A DNA stretch of 52,869 nt from a bacterium (GCA_021779255.1 JAJYBC010000001.1:1-52869); one strand, 5' to 3'. Shown: positions 1 through 9,223, counted from the stretch's first letter. Program-made: numbers and translations. Notes: a model not told the origin generated them from the sequence alone.

Positions 1-328
1 AACCACGGCTTATCTTTCTGAATTCATAGATTAAATCATCTAATTCAGCTTCAGAAATGACTAAACCGTAGTGTTTGTTGAATGTCTTTGAAAGAATCGT
101 AGCAAAGTTATGCTGACATAAATTAATATTATGATCAGCGTAAAAGGCTTTTAGCTCATTATCATAGTACGATTGTATCAAAGAAGCTTCTGTTTTGTTG
201 ATCTTTTTTACTAGTAAAAAAGGAAGAATAATTTTTTCAAATCCGTTATTCTTTCCTTCTTTTTCTTGGCTGAAATCAACATCAAGCAACGTTTGGTAGA
301 GATCAAAAAATATGGCTTGAGTAGGCAT
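1..328 (-). CDS. HAD-superfamily hydrolase, N-terminal part (3' end runs off the window)
   Basis: Reverse-strand ATG at 326-328. Translation MPTQAIFFDLYQTLLDVDFSQEKEG... has a HAD motif-I-like FFDLYQTL (DxYxT variant, as in haloacid-dehalogenase-type members). Open to the window edge, so absent from the ORF track. Confidence 0.5.
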   Translation of the reverse strand, partial: MPTQAIFFDLYQTLLDVDFSQEKEGKNNGFEKIILPFLLVKKINKTEASLIQSYYDNELKAFYADHNINLCQHNFATILSKTFNKHYGLVISEAELDDLIYEFRKISRG

Positions 329-422
329 GTAATTCAGTTTATCGGTCTAACGGGTCGCTTATATGGATTAGAATATCATAGAACTGTTTTTGGGTCAAAA
401 AAGTCTTTGTAGATTGATTAAC

Positions 423-451
423 TTGACACCTTAGTATCGTTTAGCTACATT
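423..451 (+). promoter_or_regulatory. sigma70-like promoter of the 630-5025 operon
   Basis: TTGACA (423-428), 17-nt spacer, TACATT (446-451). The predicted start falls at the first unit of the 13-nt repeat. Confidence 0.45.
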
Positions 452-454
452 AGC

Positions 455-553
455 AAGAAATATTATTAAGAAATATTATTAAGAAATATTATTAAGAAAT
501 ATTATTAAGAAATATTATTAAGAAATATTATTAAGAAATATTATTAAGAAATA
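455..553. repeat. Tandem repeat, 13-bp unit AAGAAATATTATT, 7 perfect copies plus an 8-nt partial
   Basis: Read directly: units start at 455, 468, 481, 494, 507, 520 and 533, with a partial at 546-553. Stop codons occur in all frames on both strands. Confidence 0.97.
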
Positions 554-629
554 ACTTACTGTTATTAGCGCATATAATCACTGTGATTTACCAGAAAAGC
601 AAAACCCCTTACCGATAAAACAGCGTAGT

Positions 630-1634
630 TTGTTACACAAAAAGCTGGATATTCCTAATTGTATTGAAAAAAGAATTAGCATCTCAAAAGCTGAAGGAGG
701 ACAAATAATTATTTTATTACGTACAGACAGTGCTCATCTTGCGAAATTTTTTACAATGAATTGGCTAGCTGATAATTCGTCAGTAAAACCAAATGCAATA
801 ATTATTGCTTTAAAGGGAAGCGCTAAGCTGTATGGCCTTAGTCAAGATCTTGACGGATTTCGTTGGTTTTGCCCAAAGACAAATCAAGTTTGGATGTTTG
901 ATAACGAATTCTATGGAAATATTAAGATAACTGTTCGTGGGTTATGCTCAGAAATTGTCCCCGCGGAAGAGACTTTTTTGCATGGCTGCTCAATGTCAAT
1001 AGATGGTCACGGACTAGTTCTTTCTGGATCGTCGGGTGCCGGCAAAACAACTTTGACCACTGTTTTTCGGCGTTTGCTTGGATCGAGATTAAAAATCATC
1101 AATGATGATTGGGGACCTTGTTCGTTGGTAAGCGGGCAACTGAAATTTACGGGTGAGCCACATTTACATATGAAATATCCAAGTGTTCATGCATTAGCAC
1201 CTAAAATTAATCTTAATCCATCTTTTTATCCTAGCGAGAATTTTCATGGTGATGTAAAAGATCCTAGGGCACGTTTACTAATTGATCCAAGGAAAGTCTT
1301 TGGCCAAAAAGACTTTATAAATGAAGCTAAATTACAATTATTTGTTATGGTTACACGTGATCCGTCTAAGCCAATAGGGATAAAATTTCTTTCGACGCGT
1401 GACCTATTTTTATTTGAGCAAGGCCAATATTCTGATTTTTACGAAAGAACAGAAAGATTTCTCAATGGCTCTCTTTTTTTTGTTAACAATAATCAAGAAA
1501 AAAGAGAAAGTAATCGATGTCGAATGCTTTTAAAAAAATTTCCTTGTATTAGTATTAATAACGTAGGAAATCCTGAAAAAACTGCGAAGCTTATACTCAC
1601 AGAGTTTGAAAAAATTATACTTTCTAAAAGATAA
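630..1634 (+). CDS. HPr kinase/phosphorylase-like P-loop protein (HprK-related kinase family)
   Basis: LHGCSMSIDGHGLVLSGSSGAGKTTLTTVFRRLLGSRLKIINDDWG matches the HprK C-domain layout (HG..V...G.GVLI.G.SG.GKS....L...G..LV.DD). The TTG start is from the track. An alternative ATG at 756 and no clear SD leave the start uncertain. Confidence 0.55.
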   Translation: MLHKKLDIPNCIEKRISISKAEGGQIIILLRTDSAHLAKFFTMNWLADNSSVKPNAIIIALKGSAKLYGLSQDLDGFRWFCPKTNQVWMFDNEFYGNIKITVRGLCSEIVPAEETFLHGCSMSIDGHGLVLSGSSGAGKTTLTTVFRRLLGSRLKIINDDWGPCSLVSGQLKFTGEPHLHMKYPSVHALAPKINLNPSFYPSENFHGDVKDPRARLLIDPRKVFGQKDFINEAKLQLFVMVTRDPSKPIGIKFLSTRDLFLFEQGQYSDFYERTERFLNGSLFFVNNNQEKRESNRCRMLLKKFPCISINNVGNPEKTAKLILTEFEKIILSKR

Positions 1635-1637
1635 ATT

Positions 1638-2810
1638 ATGTCTACAATTTGTGTTATCAAAAGTAGAAAATATCCTATAGAAGAAGAAGACATTGTTGAT
1701 GGGGGAACGCTTAATGCTCAAATTATAGTAAAAGAACTTATAAAAAAAGGTTTTAATATTGAGGTCTTTACGCGTTACGAAGGTAATGGCCGAAAGATGT
1801 TTAATAAACCAGGAATTCGTATATTTCGAGTTCCTTTTATACGTTCCAAAAAACGAAATGTATTGCAACGTGATTACGAAGAGGGGTGTTCTTTTATAAA
1901 AAGCGTAGTTTCCCATAGTGAGTTTCAACCAGAAAAATATATCTGTATTCACACTCATCATTGGACATCGGGCGTTGGTCTTGAGTCCTTTATTCCTAAG
2001 CAATTAAAACTTATTCATACACCGCATTTATTGGCCATAGAAAAAGCGTACTATAATAAACTTTCATTTTCCTCTTGCATTAAAGCTTGCGAACAAGCGC
2101 TTATCAACAGAGCTAATCATGTCATTGCCCTATCTAAAAGCGAGAAAGAAGCCTTAATCGTTAAGTATGGGTGTAATAAAGAAAAAATAATATTAGCTCC
2201 CAATGGAGTTGATTCTGTTTTTTTTAAAATTCCTTTACCAAAAAAAGAAAATATTAATACGTTACCACTTCTTTTTATTGGACGGCGTTGTCGTCAAAAA
2301 GGGAGTGATATTTTGCTAGAAGCTGTTAAACAAATTTCAAAAAAAGACATTCCAATTTCACTTCGTTTGGTAGGTGGTTCATATGGAGAAGCTAATTTTG
2401 ATAAATTAATTGAGTCGCGAATTCAAAAATTACTGTCCTCTTGTGTTATAAAACAGTTCGAAGAAGTCTCGCATAATCTTATTCCATCTCTAATAAAAGA
2501 TAGTCTTATATATGTTCAACCTTCTCGTTATGAAAGTCAAGGCGTTGCCATTTTGGAGGCAATGGCTGCCGGACGGATTGTTATTGCTTCTAACCTTCCT
2601 GCAATTAGCGAGTACATTTGTCACGGTAAAAATGGTTTTTTAGTTGATTCTGAAAACTCGAACGCTCTTGCAAAAAGTATAATGGAATTACTTATTAATC
2701 CTGAAAAATCAATTTTATTAGCACGTGCCGCTCGAGAAACGGCAAAAAATTATACATGGTCTCATATGTTGAAAAGCATATTACCGCTTTTCGAAAGTAA
2801 TCAAATTTAA
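1638..2810 (+). CDS. Glycosyltransferase, GT1/GT4 family (GT-B fold)
   Basis: C-terminal PSRYESQGVAILEAMAAGRIVIAS...GFLV (EX7E-type motif). ATG lies 3 nt after the upstream stop. Confidence 0.8.
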   Translation: MSTICVIKSRKYPIEEEDIVDGGTLNAQIIVKELIKKGFNIEVFTRYEGNGRKMFNKPGIRIFRVPFIRSKKRNVLQRDYEEGCSFIKSVVSHSEFQPEKYICIHTHHWTSGVGLESFIPKQLKLIHTPHLLAIEKAYYNKLSFSSCIKACEQALINRANHVIALSKSEKEALIVKYGCNKEKIILAPNGVDSVFFKIPLPKKENINTLPLLFIGRRCRQKGSDILLEAVKQISKKDIPISLRLVGGSYGEANFDKLIESRIQKLLSSCVIKQFEEVSHNLIPSLIKDSLIYVQPSRYESQGVAILEAMAAGRIVIASNLPAISEYICHGKNGFLVDSENSNALAKSIMELLINPEKSILLARAARETAKNYTWSHMLKSILPLFESNQI

Positions 2811-2818
2811 TTATAAAT

Positions 2819-3988
2819 ATGAATTCAACTATAATTTTAGCACCACAGGAAACTCACGATCAATCTCGTCAACAAATTATGAAGGATCGCGCTATCAGAA
2901 CCGCCAATATTTTAAAAAAACAGGCTGGAATTGTTGGTATTTTACTCTCTGGTAGTGTGGTAAGAGGTCCGGTTAGTGAATCTAGTGATCTTGATTTGCA
3001 TGTTATTGTTTCCAATAAATTTAGTGGTGTTTTACCTGAATGGACTTTTCATAAAGAAGGGATTATTGAGAATTTACATACAATACGAGAAGATGAACTT
3101 TTTAATGGGTGGTGCGTTCGTAAAAACGAAAATCTTCTGGCCTTTTGGTTTTATAGAACAAAATTTGGTGATCAACTTAATTGTTTTGTGCCTTTGTGGT
3201 GGAGCTCAAATACAAAATGGCAGGAAAGGTTACTTGTTTTGTTAGCGTTTCGACAGAATTTGAATATTGAAAAAAAGATAGCTCAATATTATATAAAATC
3301 AGCTCGCTTATCTTTGGATCAAGCGCAAAAGGCATGTATTAGTGGTGCTTATTACGATAGTCATCATAATCTAAGAATGGCTTTCCAATCAACATTAACA
3401 GCCGCGATGATTAATCGAAACTGGATTATTCGTGGATCAAAAAAAAGAATAGAAATAGCCCAAGCTTTTCTACCTGATTCGAAAATCAAATTCTTACTAG
3501 ATGCTGGTCTGGATATTATTGATTTAAAAAATATAACTTTTAACCAGGCTAAAAACTTATGTAAGAAACGCCTTCGATATAGAAGAACATTCATTGATGA
3601 GTTGTATAGGCTAAAAGAGCAACATAAATCTAATGAAACTGTTAATAATAAATTAAAATTGGTTATTAAGAATCAAGAAAAACATGATTCGATGGCTTAT
3701 GACTATTATGAGTCGCTTTTAGCTAATAATATAATCTTTGGTCCGATTAATCACATTAGATGTTTTTCGGGATTATCTCAAATTCCGCAAACAATTATCT
3801 CGTGTTTTTATCATAAGAATAGTCGCTGGCCAATGAATAAATTTATAAATTCAAGTTTATTCTCAAAATCGGTACGGAATGATTGGCTTGAAATAATGAG
3901 TTTGACGTCGTCAAATAAACGTTGCGTTCAATTATCTTTGCGATTGATTAAATCTATAGATAGCTGTTGGTTAACAAATAATATTTGA
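2819..3988 (+). CDS. Pol-beta-superfamily nucleotidyltransferase domain protein with a large helical C-terminal region
   Basis: GILLSGSVVRGPVSESSDLDLHVIV is the G[SG]x9-12DxD minimal NTase motif. The remaining ~300 aa have no motif I recognise. Confidence 0.6.
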   Translation: MNSTIILAPQETHDQSRQQIMKDRAIRTANILKKQAGIVGILLSGSVVRGPVSESSDLDLHVIVSNKFSGVLPEWTFHKEGIIENLHTIREDELFNGWCVRKNENLLAFWFYRTKFGDQLNCFVPLWWSSNTKWQERLLVLLAFRQNLNIEKKIAQYYIKSARLSLDQAQKACISGAYYDSHHNLRMAFQSTLTAAMINRNWIIRGSKKRIEIAQAFLPDSKIKFLLDAGLDIIDLKNITFNQAKNLCKKRLRYRRTFIDELYRLKEQHKSNETVNNKLKLVIKNQEKHDSMAYDYYESLLANNIIFGPINHIRCFSGLSQIPQTIISCFYHKNSRWPMNKFINSSLFSKSVRNDWLEIMSLTSSNKRCVQLSLRLIKSIDSCWLTNNI

Positions 3989-3999
3989 TTGGAAATTTT

Positions 4000-5025
4000 A
4001 TGAAAAATGTAAAAAGGGTAAAGATTAAACTTCCTATTCCTGGTAAGACACCATTGACCAAGTGTAATGGTCTTTTTGGTATTCAAAATTTATTTATGAA
4101 AGATGAAACAAAAAATCCTAATCATACTTTTAAAGACAGATTAGCTTATGAGGCTGTGAAACCTATTATGGAAGCAATAAATTTAAATAAAAAATTTACA
4201 AAAACCACTTTTGGTTCCATCTCGTATGGCAATACAGCTTATAGTTTAGGGTACTACACTTCGGTGCTTAATAAACTAGCCAAAGAAAAAATTGTTAATA
4301 TGGTCTCTTTTGTTCCTCCATTCTTAAAAAATAAAACTTTTGGTCCAAACACTGATGGTCAATTTGTGTTTCCAAAAACTTATTTTAGAAAAATGTTTCA
4401 TAATTTTGATAGTGCTGATTTTATAGAGATAGATTTAACAAAAAAAATCTATAATTCTAATGATTTAGAAAATATTGCTAGGGCGAGATGCCTCGTCGAG
4501 GATAAATTTATTGATGTGACAGAGGGATTAGATCGACCTGCGTATGTAAATATAATTATAGAAGCTATAGAGCAACAATTAAAATCTGCCCCTGACTATA
4601 TAATAGTTCCTTTTGGCGCCGGTATTTTGTGTGATGAAGTGATTGATTATATAAAAGATAACAATCTATCGTCAAAAGTTATACCTGTTAGTTCTGGCGA
4701 CCCAAAGACAATAGCAGTGATGTTATATGGTCCTATTTGGGTCGATACAAAAGTGTTGCTAGAGGAGGGAAGTGCTTTAACGAGACATAAAATTCCTGAT
4801 AAGAAAGTTCGATTTAGAGAACAATATAGAGTTTATCATGTTGATGATAGTGAAATAAAAAATGCAATGGAAATTTTAAATAAAGCAAGAATCAGCGCCG
4901 AAGCAAGTGGGGCATCTGGATTTGCAATTTTATCTAGACTAAAAAAAATAGATCCTAAATTCGATTCAAAAAAACATTCAGTTTTGGTAATCAATACCGG
5001 TAATGGTCTTTCAAATTTTTCCTAA
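4000..5025 (+). CDS. Fold-type-II PLP-dependent enzyme (threonine synthase / cysteine synthase-like)
   Basis: NPNHTFKDRLAYEAV (PLP-lysine motif, cf. NPTGSFKDR), GNTAYSLG, and the glycine loop VPFGAGIL. The track starts at TTG 3985; I prefer ATG 4000 (MKNVKRV...). Confidence 0.6.
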   Translation: MKNVKRVKIKLPIPGKTPLTKCNGLFGIQNLFMKDETKNPNHTFKDRLAYEAVKPIMEAINLNKKFTKTTFGSISYGNTAYSLGYYTSVLNKLAKEKIVNMVSFVPPFLKNKTFGPNTDGQFVFPKTYFRKMFHNFDSADFIEIDLTKKIYNSNDLENIARARCLVEDKFIDVTEGLDRPAYVNIIIEAIEQQLKSAPDYIIVPFGAGILCDEVIDYIKDNNLSSKVIPVSSGDPKTIAVMLYGPIWVDTKVLLEEGSALTRHKIPDKKVRFREQYRVYHVDDSEIKNAMEILNKARISAEASGASGFAILSRLKKIDPKFDSKKHSVLVINTGNGLSNFS

Positions 5026-5065
5026 TTGTTAAAATTAGAAATTAATCTCAAGTTAGAACCAAATA

Positions 5066-5088
5066 AAAGGCTTGTTAAAGCCTTTTTT
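5066..5088 (+). terminator. Rho-independent terminator of the 630-5025 operon
   Basis: AAGGCTT-GTTA-AAGCCTT stem-loop followed by TTTTTT. Confidence 0.7.
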
Positions 5089-5106
5089 GGGTCGTATTTT
5101 CATCAG

Positions 5107-5178
5107 CTGGGGTGGTAGGATTCGAACCCACGATTTTCTCGTTCAGAGCGAGATGCCTTACCACTTGGCCACACCCCA
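5107..5178 (-). tRNA. tRNA-Gln (anticodon CUG)
   Basis: Reverse complement UGGGGUG...CACCCCAG folds as a cloverleaf. Anticodon arm UCUCG-CUCUGAA-CGAGA, T arm GUGGG-UUCGAAU-CCUAC. CCA is not encoded. Confidence 0.9.
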
Positions 5179-5206
5179 AAAATAAAATTTTCAACCTGAA
5201 AAAAAC

Positions 5207-5231
5207 GGGCGGGCACAAGGCCCGCCCCTAC
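5207..5231. repeat. GC-rich hairpin with CTAC tail (REP-like)
   Basis: GGGCGGGC-ACAAG-GCCCGCCC (8-bp perfect stem) followed by CTAC. The reverse complement reads GTAG plus palindrome. Confidence 0.6.
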
Positions 5232-5390
5232 ATTACGATTTTTTTATGAAAAAATCAAAAAATAGGAATACGCATAGAAAGGAGATGTCGAAATAAATTC
5301 GGCATGACAATTGGATAAATACAAATACAGAAACCTAGATTGCCCGGTCGTGGCCGGTCAATGACAATGTTATGGGGGTGCTCCTATAAA

Positions 5391-5765
5391 TTATACGTCT
5401 TCCTTGCGCATAAAACCAGATTTTTTGAGAGTAACTTTGAATTCCGGTTCGTAGCGATTATTGTTTTCGTCGACAATTTTGACGTTTTGACCTTTCATAA
5501 TAGTGGCCATAGCGATGTCGTTGATGAGCTGTTGATCGGCATTGATATCGTCGCGCAGACTTTCTAGTTTATCATAAGCTTCACCCATATCAACTTGCAC
5601 GTCGTTTTCAATTTGTTGTTTTTTAGTGCGCATTGTCTTGATTTCTTCAATTAGATTTTTGTAACGCTTGTCGTTGTCTAGCCCGTCTTTGTACATAGCG
5701 CGCAAATCTTTGAGCTTTTTTTTCTTCTCTTGCATGCGGTCAAAAACCGCTTGGATGTTTTGCAT
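5391..5765 (-). CDS. Hypothetical coiled-coil protein (124 aa)
   Basis: Longest ORF at this locus, charged heptad-like sequence, no recognisable motif. It is bracketed by REP-like elements and sits next to tRNA-Gln. Confidence 0.5.
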   Translation of the reverse strand: MQNIQAVFDRMQEKKKKLKDLRAMYKDGLDNDKRYKNLIEEIKTMRTKKQQIENDVQVDMGEAYDKLESLRDDINADQQLINDIAMATIMKGQNVKIVDENNNRYEPEFKVTLKKSGFMRKEDV

Positions 5766-5854
5766 GATCGATTTTTAAAATTTATTTTTTAGCACCTTTC
5801 GATTATAAAGAAGCTTTTTATTTTTCAAAAGTTTAGAAGGATGATATGGTGAAA

Positions 5855-5956
5855 GGGCAGGTCGCGACCTGCCCGTACAAGGCCTGCCCGTACAAGCCTT
5901 GCCCGTACTAAATCATTCCCGCCAAGGCCTGCCCGTACAAGATCTGCCCGTACGTA
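5855..5956. repeat. REP-like element: 20-bp perfect palindrome plus five copies of CTGCCCGTAC
   Basis: GGGCAGGTCGCGACCTGCCC (5855-5874), then CCTGCCCGTACAAGG-type units at about 5868, 5883, 5897, 5928 and 5943. Confidence 0.9.
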
Positions 5957-5982
5957 CTGATAAAAAATTAAAAATTCTATTT

Positions 5983-6555
5983 ATGAGTAAAATCTTCTTA
6001 CAATCTTTCTTGAAAAATCCGCGGCAAACTGGGTCGATTGTCCCCAGTTCGGTTTTTTTGGTTAAAAAATTAACCGATCCGGTAGATTATGAAAAATCTA
6101 AAATTTTGGTGGAGTTTGGAGCAGGGAACGGAGTGGTAACCAAAACGATTTTGCGTAAAATGCGTGATGACGCGATCTTGGTTTGCATAGAGATAGAGGA
6201 AAAACTTTGTCGAGAAATCAAAAAAAAGATTAAAGATCCGCGTTTGAAGTTGATCTGTGGTGGGGCAGGGGATTTGGGTGATTTTTTGCGGGAACTAAAA
6301 ATTGAGCAGGTGGATTACATCATTTCAGAACTACCGTTGGTTAGTTTGCCAGCTGAAATGGTGGAAAATATCTTAATTTCGGCTAAAAAATATCTAAAGC
6401 CGGACGGTAAATACATTCAAATGCAATATTCGCTACTAGGGCTCAAGAAATTAAAAAGACATTTTTCGGAGGTAAAAATTAGCTTTACGCCACTAAATAT
6501 TCCACCCAGTTTTGTATATATTTGTTCTTTATCACTCTCCCTTGACGAGTGCTAA
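5983..6555 (+). CDS. Class I SAM-dependent methyltransferase (COG3963-like)
   Basis: MSKIFLQSFLKNPRQTGSIVPSS... and VEFGAGNGVVT (SAM motif I). The track start TTG 5899 would read through the repeat array, so ATG 5983 is preferred. Confidence 0.65.
   Translation: MSKIFLQSFLKNPRQTGSIVPSSVFLVKKLTDPVDYEKSKILVEFGAGNGVVTKTILRKMRDDAILVCIEIEEKLCREIKKKIKDPRLKLICGGAGDLGDFLRELKIEQVDYIISELPLVSLPAEMVENILISAKKYLKPDGKYIQMQYSLLGLKKLKRHFSEVKISFTPLNIPPSFVYICSLSLSLDEC
6529..6555 (+). promoter_or_regulatory. CIRCE (HrcA operator) upstream of groES
   Basis: TTATCACTC-N9-GAGTGCTAA versus consensus TTAGCACTC-N9-GAGTGCTAA (1 mismatch). It overlaps the last codons and stop of the methyltransferase ORF. Confidence 0.75.
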
Positions 6556-6679
6556 ATTTATGATAAGATGAAATTGGCTAGAGTGTATTTCTAATACGCT
6601 CGCGATGTTCGCGTGATCTAGGCGAACAATTATTCGCTCGTGCGAGGTGTTAATAATTTAATATTTAAATCAAAAAGCT

Positions 6680-6955
6680 ATGGCAACGTTGATCAAACCC
6701 TTGGGAGACAATGTTCTGATCAAGGTCACGAAATTAGAGAAGAAAACTAAAAGTGGTATTGTTTTGCCGGAAACGGCCGAAGACGAAAAACCGCAAATGG
6801 GCGAAGTTATGGCTGTCGGTAATGACGAAAAGAAAATTCAAGTTAAGACTGGCGATAAGATTATTTTTGCCAAATATGCCGGCACCGAAGTTAAAATGGA
6901 TGATGAAGAATATTTAATTTTAAAATCGGAAGACATTTTGGCAATAGTAATGTAA
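6680..6955 (+). CDS. groES: Co-chaperonin GroES
   Basis: [16 protein letters not shown]...SGIVLPETA...GEVMAVG...[14 protein letters not shown], typical Cpn10. Confidence 0.95.
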
Positions 6956-6958
6956 GAA

Positions 6959-7047
6959 GGGACAGGTCGCGACCTGTCCGTACCGACCTGTCCGTACCGA
7001 CCTGTCCGTACCGACCTGTCCGTACCGACCTGTCCGTACCGACTCGG
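6959..7047. repeat. REP-like element: 20-bp perfect palindrome plus a 5x tandem 14-bp array
   Basis: GGACAGGTCGCGACCTGTCC (6960-6979). CGACCTGTCCGTAC repeats at 6970, 6984, 6998, 7012 and 7026, then a partial CGACTCGG. Confidence 0.95.
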
Positions 7048-7052
7048 TAATG

Positions 7053-8600
7053 TTATTCCACGATAATTTCCCCTGACAATTTATTGATTTTTTTGATTTT
7101 AATCAATAAAGCCAAAAAAGCTCCAGTAAAAAGGAAAAGAGAAGAAATGGCAAAAACAGTGTCATAAGCGGAAATCTGGGCTTTTAAGATAACTAACGAA
7201 ATAAATGTCGGGAGGTAGTTTGTCATTGGCTTTAAACCAATAGCGACTGAATTGATAGCGCTATGACTGGCGATGGTGAGAACGTTGGAATTGGTGGCGT
7301 CGCTCAAAATAGTACTAAAAATAGCGATGCCAAAAGCTCCCGCAATGTTTCTGGCTAAGGCGAGAATAGACGAAGCGATGCCAATTTCATTGACGGGAAC
7401 GATAGAAGCGATAATATTGGTTCTTTGCGCCATACCGAGACCCATACCAAAGGCCATAATGGAAAGGGGAATGATTATACCCAAGGCTCCCGACCGAGGG
7501 TCAAGATAAGAAAAAAGGTAAAGGCCGATTCCGGCGATGAAAGTGCTGATAGCAATAATAAAGCGAGGCTGTATTTTTTCTCCTAAAAAAACTCCCAAGG
7601 GGGAAGAAGCTACCATAATAAAGGCCATAGGGATAAATAAATAACCGGTTTGGGTGGCATCGTAGCCTAAAAAAGTTTGAGCGAAGATCGGAATCAAAAA
7701 AATACCTCCCATCATGCCCATAAAAATTAGAAAATTATTGATGAGAGTATGAATAAAAGCGCCAATTTTGAAAAATTTGAAATCGACGAGTGGCTCGGGA
7801 TGTTTTTTTTCAATCCGGATAAAAACAGCGAGAAAAATTAAGACGGAAAGATAGCAAGAAAAACTGTTGAGCGAGGTCCAGCCCCATTCCAATCCTTTGT
7901 CAAGAACCAAAACTAAAGCGGAAAGAGCGATGCCTAAAGTGCCGGCGCCCCAAAAATCAAATTTGACTGTTTTCTTTTCCGAAACGGATTCCCGAATAAA
8001 AGACATGGCCATCAAAATACCGATAATTCCGATAGGTAAGTTAATTAAAAAGACTGATCGCCAGCTAAAATTATCAATTAACGGACCTCCAATTAACGGT
8101 CCAAAGACAGCCGCGGCCGCGAAAGAGGCCGACCAAATTCCAAGAGCCTGAGCTCTTTCTTTGCCTTCGCGAAAGGTAACGGCAATGATGGCCATAGCGG
8201 TTGGATAATCGGCTGAACTGGCGATGGCTTGAATAATACGAAAAACAATCATAGAACTTAAATCCCACGCAAGTCCGGCTAGAACTGAACCGAAAATAAA
8301 AATAGAAAAACCCAAGATATAAACTTTTTTTCGGCCAATAGTGTCGCCTAATTTTCCCCAGATGGGGACGAAAATAGCGTTGGCTAAAATGTAAGCGGTA
8401 GCGATCCAGCCGGCTGCCGAAACGGTAATATTAAAATCGCCAATGATTTTTGGTAAAGCCAAATTGACGATAGTTTGATCGAGCCGTCCCAAAAAAGTAC
8501 CGATAATAACCGTAAGGAGCACCAACCAGCGCAAGTTATCGGGATTATTTTTGATTGATCTTATTTTTTTAATCATAGAAGCTAATCTTTGAAAATCCAA
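7053..8600 (-). CDS. MFS efflux transporter, DHA2 (EmrB/QacA-like, 14-TMS) family
   Basis: 515 aa polytopic protein with N-terminal LDQTIVNLALP and GKLGDTIGRKK MFS motifs. Confidence 0.8.
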   Translation of the reverse strand: MDFQRLASMIKKIRSIKNNPDNLRWLVLLTVIIGTFLGRLDQTIVNLALPKIIGDFNITVSAAGWIATAYILANAIFVPIWGKLGDTIGRKKVYILGFSIFIFGSVLAGLAWDLSSMIVFRIIQAIASSADYPTAMAIIAVTFREGKERAQALGIWSASFAAAAVFGPLIGGPLIDNFSWRSVFLINLPIGIIGILMAMSFIRESVSEKKTVKFDFWGAGTLGIALSALVLVLDKGLEWGWTSLNSFSCYLSVLIFLAVFIRIEKKHPEPLVDFKFFKIGAFIHTLINNFLIFMGMMGGIFLIPIFAQTFLGYDATQTGYLFIPMAFIMVASSPLGVFLGEKIQPRFIIAISTFIAGIGLYLFSYLDPRSGALGIIIPLSIMAFGMGLGMAQRTNIIASIVPVNEIGIASSILALARNIAGAFGIAIFSTILSDATNSNVLTIASHSAINSVAIGLKPMTNYLPTFISLVILKAQISAYDTVFAISSLFLFTGAFLALLIKIKKINKLSGEIIVE

Positions 8601-9223
8601 ACTTTAGCCGACATACCATTTTTTAATTCCGGATATTCAGTAACGCTAAAACGAATTTTAATATTAAATTCTTTTTCTTGTCGGGCGGTGGAAATATTAA
8701 AAACCACATCTCCGCTGCGAGAAGTAGGACTGATTTCTTCGACGAGACCGGAAAATTCTTTCGTCCCGAAAGCGTCTACGGTAAAAGTAACTCTTTGTCC
8801 GACTTTAATTTCATTGAGCCCTTTATCCTCTTCTATTTGAGCGATAACTTTGAGTTCATCGGGTTGAATCATCTCAGCCACGGCTTCATTGGGTGCAAAA
8901 TTCTTGCCAAGACCGTCATTGATTGAGAGAATAATACCACCAACTTTGGTTTTAACGAGACTATTGCCAACTTGAGCTACGGTTTGGTGGGCTTTAACTT
9001 CGTCGCCTGCTTTGACAAAAACGGTTTGCAAAACACCTCCGCTAGCGGAAGAAAGATCGATTAAATCAGCTTCAATAGATGAATTTTCAACATAAATACT
9101 GTTTTTTGAGAGATTAAAATAAAGAAGGCCAACAATTATTGCAACAATAAAACCGGTAAAAACGAGAATTAAAAGTGACTTATTATTCTTTTGTTCTTCT
9201 TCTTTTTTATTATTATTCTCCAT
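8582..9223 (-). CDS. HlyD-family membrane-fusion / secretion adaptor (short)
   Basis: N-terminal TM followed by a lipoyl-like beta domain (VKAGDEVKAHQTVAQV). Overlaps the MFS start and lies in the same operon. Confidence 0.6.
   Translation of the reverse strand: MENNNKKEEEQKNNKSLLILVFTGFIVAIIVGLLYFNLSKNSIYVENSSIEADLIDLSSASGGVLQTVFVKAGDEVKAHQTVAQVGNSLVKTKVGGIILSINDGLGKNFAPNEAVAEMIQPDELKVIAQIEEDKGLNEIKVGQRVTFTVDAFGTKEFSGLVEEISPTSRSGDVVFNISTARQEKEFNIKIRFSVTEYPELKNGMSAKVWIFKD

Follow-up and report, generated by a model that had tools for sequence, protein, structure and literature searches.

A cassette of four genes lies near the left end of a bacterial contig of 52,869 bp (GCA_021779255.1, JAJYBC010000001.1; ~36% GC), the whole of which is referred to here as the window. 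Its open reading frames (ORFs) encode a small kinase related to phosphoenolpyruvate carboxykinase (PEPCK; ORF1), a GT4-family glycosyltransferase (ORF2), a Pol-beta-fold nucleotidyltransferase (NTase; ORF3) and a fold-type-II pyridoxal phosphate (PLP) enzyme (ORF4). Members of all four families lie side by side in about a dozen independent loci, which come from Patescibacteria-like bins, Acidobacteriota, and Alpha- and Gammaproteobacteria (Table 1), and this conserved neighbourhood indicates that the kinase, the GT4, the NTase and the PLP enzyme are functionally linked. All four proteins belong to known superfamilies, and the kinase and NTase families have no characterised member. The cassette, which is rare, present in several phyla and mobile, has the make-up of a group-transfer biosynthetic or tailoring operon, and we give about an even chance to the reading that it is a co-functional, horizontally mobile set of cytoplasmic enzymes acting on a small molecule.

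Conservation of the four-gene unit

The initial annotation had described the four ORFs as one cassette and had asked whether their order recurs in other genomes. A neighbourhood search recovered the order of the window in L010 and in L052-L055, and co-localisation of the four genes in several phyla, in part as fused proteins, bears out the idea of a conserved unit. GT4 and NTase form a single polypeptide in L008, L009, L011 and L014, a kinase::GT4 fusion was found in protein P0228, and 4 nt are shared by the PALP and kinase genes of L001, L008 and L009. The Chloracidobacterium cassette is complete and is located at roughly 4.128-4.134 Mb of JADJTD010000001.1 (GCA_016711345.1).

Table 1. Gene order of the cassette in related loci (PALP, ORF4-type PLP enzyme; rSAM, radical-SAM enzyme; MAG, metagenome-assembled genome; ::, single polypeptide; <>, divergent genes).
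Locus	Source	Gene order
L001	Chloracidobacterium	PALP-kinase-GT4-NTase-rSAM
L003, L004	MAG	Nmad2-PALP(truncated)-kinase-GT4-NTase, then AAA_28, rSAM
L008, L009	metagenome contigs	TauD/PALP-kinase-GT4::NTase, TauD, ~520-aa protein
L010	gammaproteobacterial MAG	kinase-GT4-NTase-PALP (order as in the window)
L011	Allosphingosinicella	PALP-kinase-GT4::NTase
L012	Acidobacteriota	PALP-kinase-NTase; GT4 nearby, other strand
L014	Alphaproteobacteria	PALP-kinase-GT4::NTase
L052-L056	metagenome contigs	HAD <> kinase-GT4-NTase-PALP; in L056 PALP upstream

The head-to-tail packing in the window is tight, with gaps of 3 nt between ORF1 and ORF2 and of 8 nt between ORF2 and ORF3; ORF4 overlaps ORF3 by 4 nt if it starts at TTG 3985 and follows it after 11 nt if it starts at ATG 4000. 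These spacings agree with those first proposed, and all the motifs first named were found in the translations, namely GSSGAGKTT and NDDWG in ORF1, the EX7E motif ESQGVAILE in ORF2, GS...DLD in ORF3 and the PLP-lysine motif TFKDR in ORF4. Because the gene set is kept across phyla with overlaps and fusions, a chance juxtaposition of the four genes is effectively excluded.

ORF1 is predicted to be a small PEPCK-like kinase

The product of ORF1 (356 aa) gave only sub-threshold matches in Pfam, to Hpr_kinase_C (PF07475, 21.7 bits against a cutoff of 33.3) and to PEPCK_ATP (PF01293, 15 against 26.5). It had initially been assigned the P-loop layout of the HPr-kinase catalytic domain, with the reservation that it might turn out to be a bona fide HprK/P. 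The latter is not the case, since ORF1 scored 24.2 bits against TIGR00679 (HprK/P), the cutoff of which is 240, and the match covered ~35-50 residues around the P-loop. The HprK-related A and B models (TIGR04352 and TIGR04355) gave 16.8 and 14.3 bits against a cutoff of 200, and no match to the N-terminal HprK domain (PF02603) was found in ORF1. Inspection of the ORFs in positions 1-9000 disclosed no HPr-like ORF; no profile search aimed at the HPr of the phosphotransferase system was made across the window.

An AlphaFold model of the kinase, built from 47 sequences, reached a pLDDT of 96.1, and when it was compared with the PDB by Foldseek it matched ATP-PEPCK over its full length (E ~1e-16, TMq 0.66-0.70, ~360 columns). 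The 50 best structural matches in the PDB were all PEPCKs, and the viral library BFVD returned giant-virus PEPCKs only, which ruled out a phage DNA-hypermodification kinase. Judged from the model, ORF1 is a 'mini-PEPCK' with the two-domain PEPCK fold, which belongs to the HprK superfamily and lacks an HprK-like architecture. Of the first assignment, the P-loop motif and the superfamily hence stand, but the architecture does not, and both HprK/P and the HprK-related A/B families were ruled out by the model cutoffs and the PEPCK fold. Searches of the PDB with the single sequences of ORF1, ORF3 and ORF4 returned P-loop noise or nothing, and the sequence profile of the kinase retrieved mostly generic P-loops (midasin, ABC transporters).

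Twelve positions are invariant in the kinase family (Y117, K121, H140, G155, G158, G160, K161, T162, N180, D182, T196 and K204), and D181 is near-invariant (at least 90% of the sequences). The ORF1 motifs YGNxK, HGC, GxSGAGKTT and NDDWG parallel those of E. coli PckA, which we take to be YGGEMKK, MHCSA, GLSGTGKTT and GDDEHGW. A local alignment to a fragment of E. coli PckA (E 5e-5) paired YGNIK with YGGEMK and the P-loop with GLSGTGKTT, whereas the His was one residue off and the DD motif was not cleanly aligned. The likeness to ATP-PEPCK extends to the full-length fold, and PF01293 is a recurrent weak match in the kinase family; however, this match stays below the cutoff in ORF1, identity is 14-17%, and ORF1 has ~356 aa against ~530-540. 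Furthermore, PckA works in central metabolism, whereas the operon neighbours of ORF1 are group-transfer enzymes and the setting is that of mobile elements.

Several distant relatives carry a kinase or kinase-like domain in another context. In P0275 and P0336 an aspartate-aminotransferase-like PLP domain is fused to a kinase-like domain; in P0229 the kinase domain is at the C-terminus of a 2,081-aa protein resembling a polyketide synthase (MaoC, KR, ACP and KS domains, with a weak sub-threshold HAD match); and in P0224 a transglycosylase domain of the penicillin-binding-protein (PBP) type lies upstream of the kinase domain. Some of these four may be gene-calling artefacts. P0347, with an NMNAT-like domain and a kinase-like region, is possibly a NadR-type P-loop match and was not used as evidence. 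In addition, kinase homologues with 31-36% identity were found in actinomycetes (L013 and L016-L051), many of them Streptosporangiaceae MAGs, plus Nonomuraea. The kinase gene looks split or frameshifted in L049-L051. No conserved neighbours were detected around the ~35 actinomycete homologues, and the apparent gene clusters beside them proved to be shadow ORFs on the antisense strand of the kinase gene.

The glycosyltransferase, the nucleotidyltransferase and the PLP enzyme

Both half-domains of ORF2 scored above their Pfam cutoffs (PF00534, Glycos_transf_1, 112.7 bits against 26.4; PF13439, Glyco_transf_4, 61.8 against 28.5), and on these matches it is classified as a retaining GT-B glycosyltransferase of family GT4. 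Its best NCBIfam model was MshA (TIGR03449; 126.9 bits, 9e-37, full length), with a score far below the equivalog cutoff of 462.5. Among solved structures the nearest were 3c4q and 3c48 (6e-23), deposited as 'Predicted glycosyltransferases' and in our view C. glutamicum MshA, followed by 6kih (Tll1590; 5e-18), presumably a sucrose-phosphate synthase (SPS), GlgM (6tvp) and then TarM (1e-12 to 1e-14). MshA, SPS and GlgM act on phosphorylated small acceptors. The MshA/MshA2 and SPS/SPP pairs resemble the cassette both in the full-length match of ORF2 and in that a HAD or His_Phos_1 phosphatase is found beside the cassette. The differences are that neither a gene for inositol-phosphate synthase nor any mycothiol gene is present, and that the MshA and SPS pathways are without a Pol-beta NTase, to which ORF2 is coupled or fused.

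ORF3 matched NTP_transf_2 (PF01909) with 23.5 bits against a cutoff of 21, and also Polbeta. Its structure model (pLDDT 91.8) consists of a Pol-beta domain and a conserved, all-helical C-terminal region of ~300 aa, and GS, DxD, RGSKK, DYY and NHIR are invariant in the family. The best structural matches were weak (E 2e-3, TMq 0.35), to ANT(4')/KNTase, Hailong HalB, LinB and AadA. ORF3 has in common with these proteins that it begins with a Pol-beta domain, which bears GS and DxD, and continues with a helical domain; however, identity is 10-18%, and ORF3 is ~130 aa longer and has its own motifs (RGSKK, DYY, NHIR). It remained below the cutoff of every ANT model, scoring 15.5 against 340 for ANT(4') and 13.8 against 350 for ANT(9) in NCBIfam.

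ORF4 matched PALP (PF00291) with 67.9 bits against a cutoff of 35 and, in addition to TFKDR, contains SYGNTA, GAGIL, AEPSG and NTGNG, so that by sequence it is a fold-type-II PLP enzyme. TFKDR is common to the five full-length members of the family that were compared, and G-A-G-x-L and A-E-x-S-G are invariant in all six sequences compared. A profile of six sequences found B. subtilis threonine synthase (6cgq) as its best match in the PDB (2e-11, full length). ThrC is hence the best solved relative of the family, with which it shares the TFKDR lysine motif and the SxGNT loop, but ORF4 belongs to a separate family, some members of which are fused to helix-turn-helix (HTH) or O-methyltransferase domains. 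The possibility, raised at the outset, that ORF4 is an ordinary threonine or cysteine synthase was ruled out by the model cutoffs (thrC, TIGR00260, 27.5 against 167.1; cysK, 17.3 against 351), and SbnA was likewise not reached (25.3 against 350).

The ORF4 family (P0128-P0186, L067-L072), named 'PLP-dependent lyase/thiolase' by NCBI, is much larger than the cassette. Relatives with 55-88% identity are spread across Patescibacteria and DPANN archaea, the best of them (88%) in Candidatus Falkowbacteria, and in genomes of the candidate phyla radiation (CPR) and DPANN they mostly stand alone. Many members are ~550 aa long and carry an N-terminal HTH domain of the TrmB/IclR/MarR type, and others have a Methyltransf_3 O-methyltransferase either as a fused domain or encoded by the gene that follows; the former may be ligand-sensing regulators and the latter a separate two-enzyme module.

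A phosphatase and other accessory genes

The cassette had been called self-contained. This held only in part, because a divergent HAD gene at the left end of the window also belongs to the unit. The translation of this gene, which is interrupted by the contig end, begins MPTQAIFFDLYQTLLD, and the fragment shares 68% identity with the 247-aa HAD protein encoded at the same divergent position in L052; the divergent arrangement is also found in the other loci of L052-L056 and in L073 and L074. The HAD protein of L052 scored 100.6 bits with TIGR02253 (below the cutoff), and its nearest models also include the pyrimidine nucleotidases YjjG and PynA. By these matches the HAD gene is a probable phosphatase, and a fifth conserved member of the cassette in its closest relatives. 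More generally, a phosphatase of the HAD or His_Phos_1 type is a frequent companion of the cassette, with CobC-like His_Phos_1 genes in L008, L014 and L056.

Other genes recur in some of the lineages. A TauD-type dioxygenase was found in five loci, and a radical-SAM enzyme, the nearest models of which are STM4011, MoaA and viperin, in three (L001, L003 and L066). A membrane-anchored protein of ~520 aa, with one N-terminal hydrophobic helix and without any Pfam or NCBIfam match, is encoded 3' of the fused GT4::NTase gene in three proteobacterial cassettes (L008, 13462-15030; L009, 14228-15781; L011, 14207-15808); it may be a membrane partner, a target or an exporter of the pathway. In addition, an RNase-J-like metallo-beta-lactamase protein, Nmad2, AAA_28, NUDIX and CYTH proteins, and ABC and MFS exporters were recurrent.

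Rarity and mobility of the cassette

Homologues of the kinase formed 62 clusters and those of the NTase 26 clusters among 5.8 billion proteins, and an exhaustive profile search of 1.84 billion proteins (E <= 1e-30) retrieved only 60 representative clusters for the kinase. The GC content of the cassette is 0.330 against 0.366 in the rest of the contig, and this value is below that of every same-size segment elsewhere in it (minimum 0.338, mean 0.364); the cassette also abuts the 3' end of a tRNA gene. In L003, L005, L008, L009 and L052 the cassette is flanked by integrases, a serine recombinase, a transposase or genes of the type found in integrative and conjugative elements (ParB/Toprim/helicase). 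In some loci the cassette is carried by integrative elements and genomic islands, which makes it more probable that it serves competition, defence or niche adaptation than housekeeping. An origin in phages or plasmids was not supported: tblastn with the kinase detected no homologues in 50,697 phage records or 72,556 plasmids, and the profiles of the kinase and the NTase, run as pattern scans over IMG/VR, retrieved no relatives. The initial annotation could not assign the combination of enzymes to a described pathway, and the searches led to the same conclusion, in that no description of such a cassette was found in the literature and no NCBIfam or PADLOC model matches the combination.

The leader region and the start of ORF1

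A TTGACA-17-TACATT site that matches the promoter consensus is present at 423-451, as first described. Its rating as a good promoter is only partly upheld: sigma-70-like sites are no commoner in this AT-rich region than expected by chance (19 found versus 27 expected from shuffled sequence), and the sole support beyond chance is that the -35 box and its flank (TTGACACCTTA) are common to the window and the homologous locus L052.

Downstream of this site a 13-nt unit, AAGAAATATTATT, is perfectly repeated (7.6 copies, 100% matches, score 198), and the repeat ends in a TAA immediately 5' of the kinase reading frame. The unit is likewise present in 7.6 copies in L073 (GCA_027351095.1), but in 2.6 copies in L074 (ERZ27236853), with identical flanks, and the repeat is absent from the leader of the homologue L052. 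We regard the repeat as a candidate for a hypervariable element or one of phase variation, and the expression of the cassette in this genome is probably modulated by the variation in its copy number.

The reading frame of ORF1 continues upstream of 630 with a conserved N-terminus (YNHCDLPEKQNPLPI), in frame from 555 and directly after the TAA at 552. Homologous kinases start ~22 codons earlier, with the motif xYNHxDPxxKQxPLPI, the equivalent of which in the window is LTVISAYNHCDLPEKQNPLPIKQRS. Codon 555 is CTT in the window versus ATG in L052, no ATG, GTG or TTG occurs in the kinase frame between 555 and 630, and the start region is identical in all three assemblies that carry the locus. From the sequence, translation must start either at ATT 564, which is the only plausible earlier start, or at TTG 630, and in the latter case the kinase would be made without its conserved N-terminal segment. 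Because the canonical ATG has been lost, the kinase may be poorly translated in this genome.

Proposed pathway

According to the reading that we prefer, the substrate would be a small metabolite, either a carboxylate or of the amino-acid type, which the cassette would phosphorylate, glycosylate and probably nucleotidylate. A small-molecule substrate is proposed because of the relatives of the GT4 and the NTase and the PEPCK-like nature of the kinase, and because phosphatases and exporters are associated with the cassette. In the first step, the mini-PEPCK and the ThrC-like enzyme would share one amino or keto acid as their substrate, and two orders can be envisaged. The kinase could make an O-phospho-amino acid that is then converted by the PLP enzyme, in the manner of ThrB and ThrC, which is suggested by the ThrC-like affinity of ORF4; or the PLP enzyme could make a 2-oxo acid, the enolate or carboxylate of which is phosphorylated by the PEPCK-like kinase, which is suggested by the PALP-to-kinase gene order, by the aspartate-aminotransferase::kinase-like fusions and by the PEPCK-like motifs that the kinase has kept. 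Either the coupling through a phospho-amino acid that had originally been put forward or the reverse order through a keto acid may apply. In a second step, the MshA/SPS-like GT4 would move a sugar from a nucleoside-diphosphate sugar onto the phosphorylated acceptor. The ANT-like NTase, often fused to the C-terminus of the GT4, would then attach a nucleoside monophosphate to the glycoside, at a hydroxyl or at a phosphate, or would activate the glycoside, and finally a HAD or His_Phos phosphatase would strip the handle phosphate, as in the SPS/SPP and MshA/MshA2 pairs. In some lineages, TauD, radical-SAM enzymes and exporters may tailor and export the product.

Pathways with a comparable logic exist: the assembly of the cobamide nucleotide loop and the activation of the F420 head group combine a kinase, a PLP enzyme, nucleotidyl activation, glycosyl- or phospho-group transfer and a final phosphatase. 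The resemblance is one of logic only, in that the set of reaction types is the same and CobC-like His_Phos_1 genes accompany the cassette in the three loci named above; apart from this weak CobC-like match no enzyme family is shared, and no corrin or deazaflavin genes lie nearby. A more specific form of the proposal would make the cassette a compact, mobile pathway for a new nucleotide-sugar-amino-acid (or enol-phosphate-derived) conjugate, built by a new family of small PEPCK-type kinases together with a ThrC-like PLP enzyme and a GT4-NTase fusion. The conjugate would be a chemical weapon or would have an antiviral or immune function, integrative elements would carry the cassette as their cargo, and in the Patescibacteria-like host the hypervariable leader repeat would switch it; we regard this form as speculative and unlikely.

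A number of points weigh against the small-molecule pathway. All the reaction steps are drawn from distant family resemblance, the single steps are much less sure than the whole, and the structural matches of ORF3, as noted, are weak. The four genes do not always travel together: GT4 and NTase, with or without HAD, occur without kinase or PALP in L058, L060 and L062, GT4, kinase and NTase without PALP in L005, and PALP and kinase, with one gene between them, without GT4 or NTase in Nocardia (L002), and ~35 actinomycete genomes contain a lone kinase homologue. The size of the PLP family, and the fact that it mostly stands alone, could mean that its link to the cassette is looser than that of the other three. 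Furthermore, the match of the GT4 to TarM, an enzyme of wall teichoic acid, may point to a target at the cell surface. Finally, the kinase has no canonical start in the window, so that the cassette may be partly inactive there, and the lost ATG together with the variable leader repeat may call its full activity into question.

Alternative explanations

The main rival holds that the cassette decorates a surface polymer, a nucleotide-activated phospho- or glycosyl head group being put on a wall or capsular glycopolymer in a phase-variable manner by means of the 13-nt repeat. Analogous systems are the addition of phosphocholine by LicA/LicC/LicD, the glycosylation of teichoic acids and the amino-alcohol-phosphate decorations of capsules. 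The TarM match of ORF2 is consistent with such a role, but the acceptors of its strongest relatives are soluble and phosphorylated. The copy number of the leader repeat varies between assemblies, and leader repeats of variable copy number are typical of contingency loci for surface structures. In CPR-like contigs (L058) GT4-NTase-HAD modules are surrounded by core genes, a stand-alone PALP homologue (L067) has MurJ and polysaccharide-synthesis genes nearby, and P0224 has its PBP-type transglycosylase domain upstream of the kinase domain; however, a flippase, a polyprenyl-phosphate transferase, a membrane-anchored glycosyltransferase or a polymerase is conserved in no cassette, and the transporters, where present, are ABC or MFS exporters of the drug or small-molecule type. 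The four translations, inspected by eye only and with no predictor run, are also without obvious hydrophobic stretches. Taken together, surface decoration appears rather unlikely.

A second explanation places the cassette in conflict or defence, where it would produce a modified nucleotide or nucleoside (antiviral, toxic or a signal) or modify bases in DNA or RNA. In L001 (3652-5937) the cassette adjoins ThiF (E1-like), Prok-E2_D and SLFN/AlbA_2 genes, so that its surroundings look like a ubiquitin-like conjugation defence cluster in a defence-island-like neighbourhood, and L008 and L009 adjoin a STAND NTPase, an RHS toxin, an SMC/AAA_21 protein and integrases. Several accessories also have a nucleotide flavour (the radical-SAM enzymes near STM4011, MoaA and viperin, Nmad2, AAA_28, the YjjG/PynA-like HAD, CYTH, the CobC-like phosphatase and NUDIX), but Nmad2 is found in one lineage only, and no recognisable sensor or effector is conserved. 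The NTase resembles Hailong HalB among others, and ORF2 exceeds the cutoff of PF20706 ('GT4-conflict'; 30.9 against 26), yet the latter score is far below its generic GT4 scores, and the fold of the kinase matches PEPCK only and no phage DNA-modifying kinase. A search of PADLOC-DB v2 gave no significant match, the only hits being marginal P-loop and MNT-like ones with E >= 7e-4, so that a known anti-phage defence system was dismissed; the lack of homologues in phage records, plasmids and IMG/VR also speaks against this explanation, which we judge to be quite improbable.

The initial annotation had also considered the tailoring of a peptide or protein, in which an HprK-type kinase would phosphorylate a Ser of a ribosomal peptide and the NTase and glycosyltransferase would add sugars to the phosphate. 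The parallel is the pseudomycoidin (psm) lasso cluster, in which the HprK-family PsmK and the ANT(2'')-like PsmN bring about C-terminal phosphorylation followed by hexosylation, a cyanobacterial cluster having a recognisable glycosyltransferase instead (PMC6993621). The cassette shares with HprK/P and the lasso kinases the PEPCK/HprK P-loop superfamily and the triad of kinase, ANT-like NTase and glycosylation, and ORF1 gave weak matches to the HprK models; however, ORF1 is far below every HprK-type cutoff and has the two-domain PEPCK fold, and the cassette has a PLP enzyme and a phosphatase and is without precursor, cyclase and protease. No lasso cyclase, B1/B2 protease or PqqD was found in the Pfam content of the four ORFs or of the neighbours in the related loci, and no small ORF outside the coding sequence is conserved in 13 loci, which confirms the absence of these genes and of a precursor that had been remarked on from the start. 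Fold-type-II PLP enzymes, moreover, need a free alpha-amino acid. Lasso tailoring was hence ruled out by the fold and by the absent partner genes and precursor ORFs, and no positive evidence was obtained for the peptide- or protein-tailoring option as a whole, which is highly improbable, the relatives of the GT4 and the NTase indicating a small-molecule substrate.

An explanation by chance, with housekeeping genes side by side or three independent antibiotic-inactivating enzymes (a phospho-, a nucleotidyl- and a glycosyltransferase) collected on an island, could appeal to the widespread and mostly stand-alone PLP family, to the classical nature of phosphorylation, adenylylation and glycosylation as drug inactivation and to the ANT-like NTase, but it is barely credible given a gene set kept across phyla, translational coupling, three kinds of domain fusion and the failure of every protein to reach any resistance-family cutoff.

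Layout of the window

The positions of the cassette and of its boundaries are collected in Table 2.

Table 2. Features at the left end of the window.
Feature	Position	Strand	Basis or remark
HAD-superfamily hydrolase, N-terminal 109 codons	2-328	-	divergent; interrupted by the contig end
Divergent intergenic control region	329-563		block at ~345-412 conserved with L052; sigma-70-like site at 423-451
Tandem repeat AAGAAATATTATT x 7.6	455-553	+	repeat search, 100% matches
ORF1, predicted kinase	564/630-1634	+	frame open from 555; start at ATT 564 or TTG 630
ORF2, GT-B glycosyltransferase, CAZy GT4	1638-2810	+	Pfam, NCBIfam and PDB matches; EX7E
ORF3, Pol-beta-fold nucleotidyltransferase	2819-3988	+	Pfam, invariant motifs, structure model
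ORF4, fold-type-II PLP enzyme, ThrC-like	3985 (TTG) or 4000 (ATG) to 5025	+	PALP match, TFKDR
Hairpin and T run, terminator-like	5066-5090	+	between the convergent ORF4 and tRNA-Gln
tRNA-Gln(CTG)	5106-5178	-	right-hand boundary; 3' end toward the cassette

The left end of the island lies beyond the contig end, and on the right the tRNA-Gln that had been noticed beside the cassette was located on the minus strand. The clean terminator described in the initial annotation is real in so far as a hairpin (5066-5085; 8-bp stem AAAGGCUU/AAGCCUUU) is followed by a T run, but it is AT-rich, and only 3 of the 8 stem pairs are G-C. The fold of the 80-nt terminator region has an energy of -16.9 kcal/mol (z = -3.0 against shuffles), and a terminator scan listed the hairpin at 5066-5085 on the minus strand only. 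A search for attachment sites in positions 1-5400 gave no convincing direct repeat of the 3' end of tRNA-Gln. The tRNA-Gln segment AGAGCGAGATGCCT (5145-5158) recurs at 4480-4493 within ORF4 (14 nt, one mismatch), probably by chance. To the right of the tRNA gene, a GC-rich 11-mer, CCTGYCCGTAC, was observed; its occurrences in the window (10 versus 0.25 expected) all fall into two short arrays, at 5868-5953 and 6973-7039, with periods of 15 and 14 nt, which flank a methyltransferase-like ORF (5899-6555) and GroES (6680-6955).

Implications

If the proposed pathway is correct, ORF1 would represent a new family of mini-PEPCK kinases of ~350 aa and would extend PEPCK chemistry beyond central metabolism, and ORF3 would represent a new NTase family of ~390 aa that is fused to GT4 in several lineages. 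In addition, four to six genes in uncultured lineages (a Patescibacteria-like bin and Acidobacteriota) could be a source of a new natural product or glycoconjugate. With the 13-nt repeat, a Patescibacteria-like genome would offer a candidate switch for phase variation; to our knowledge, few such switches have been documented in that group. Should the cassette only decorate a wall polymer, it would still be new, and of more modest interest.

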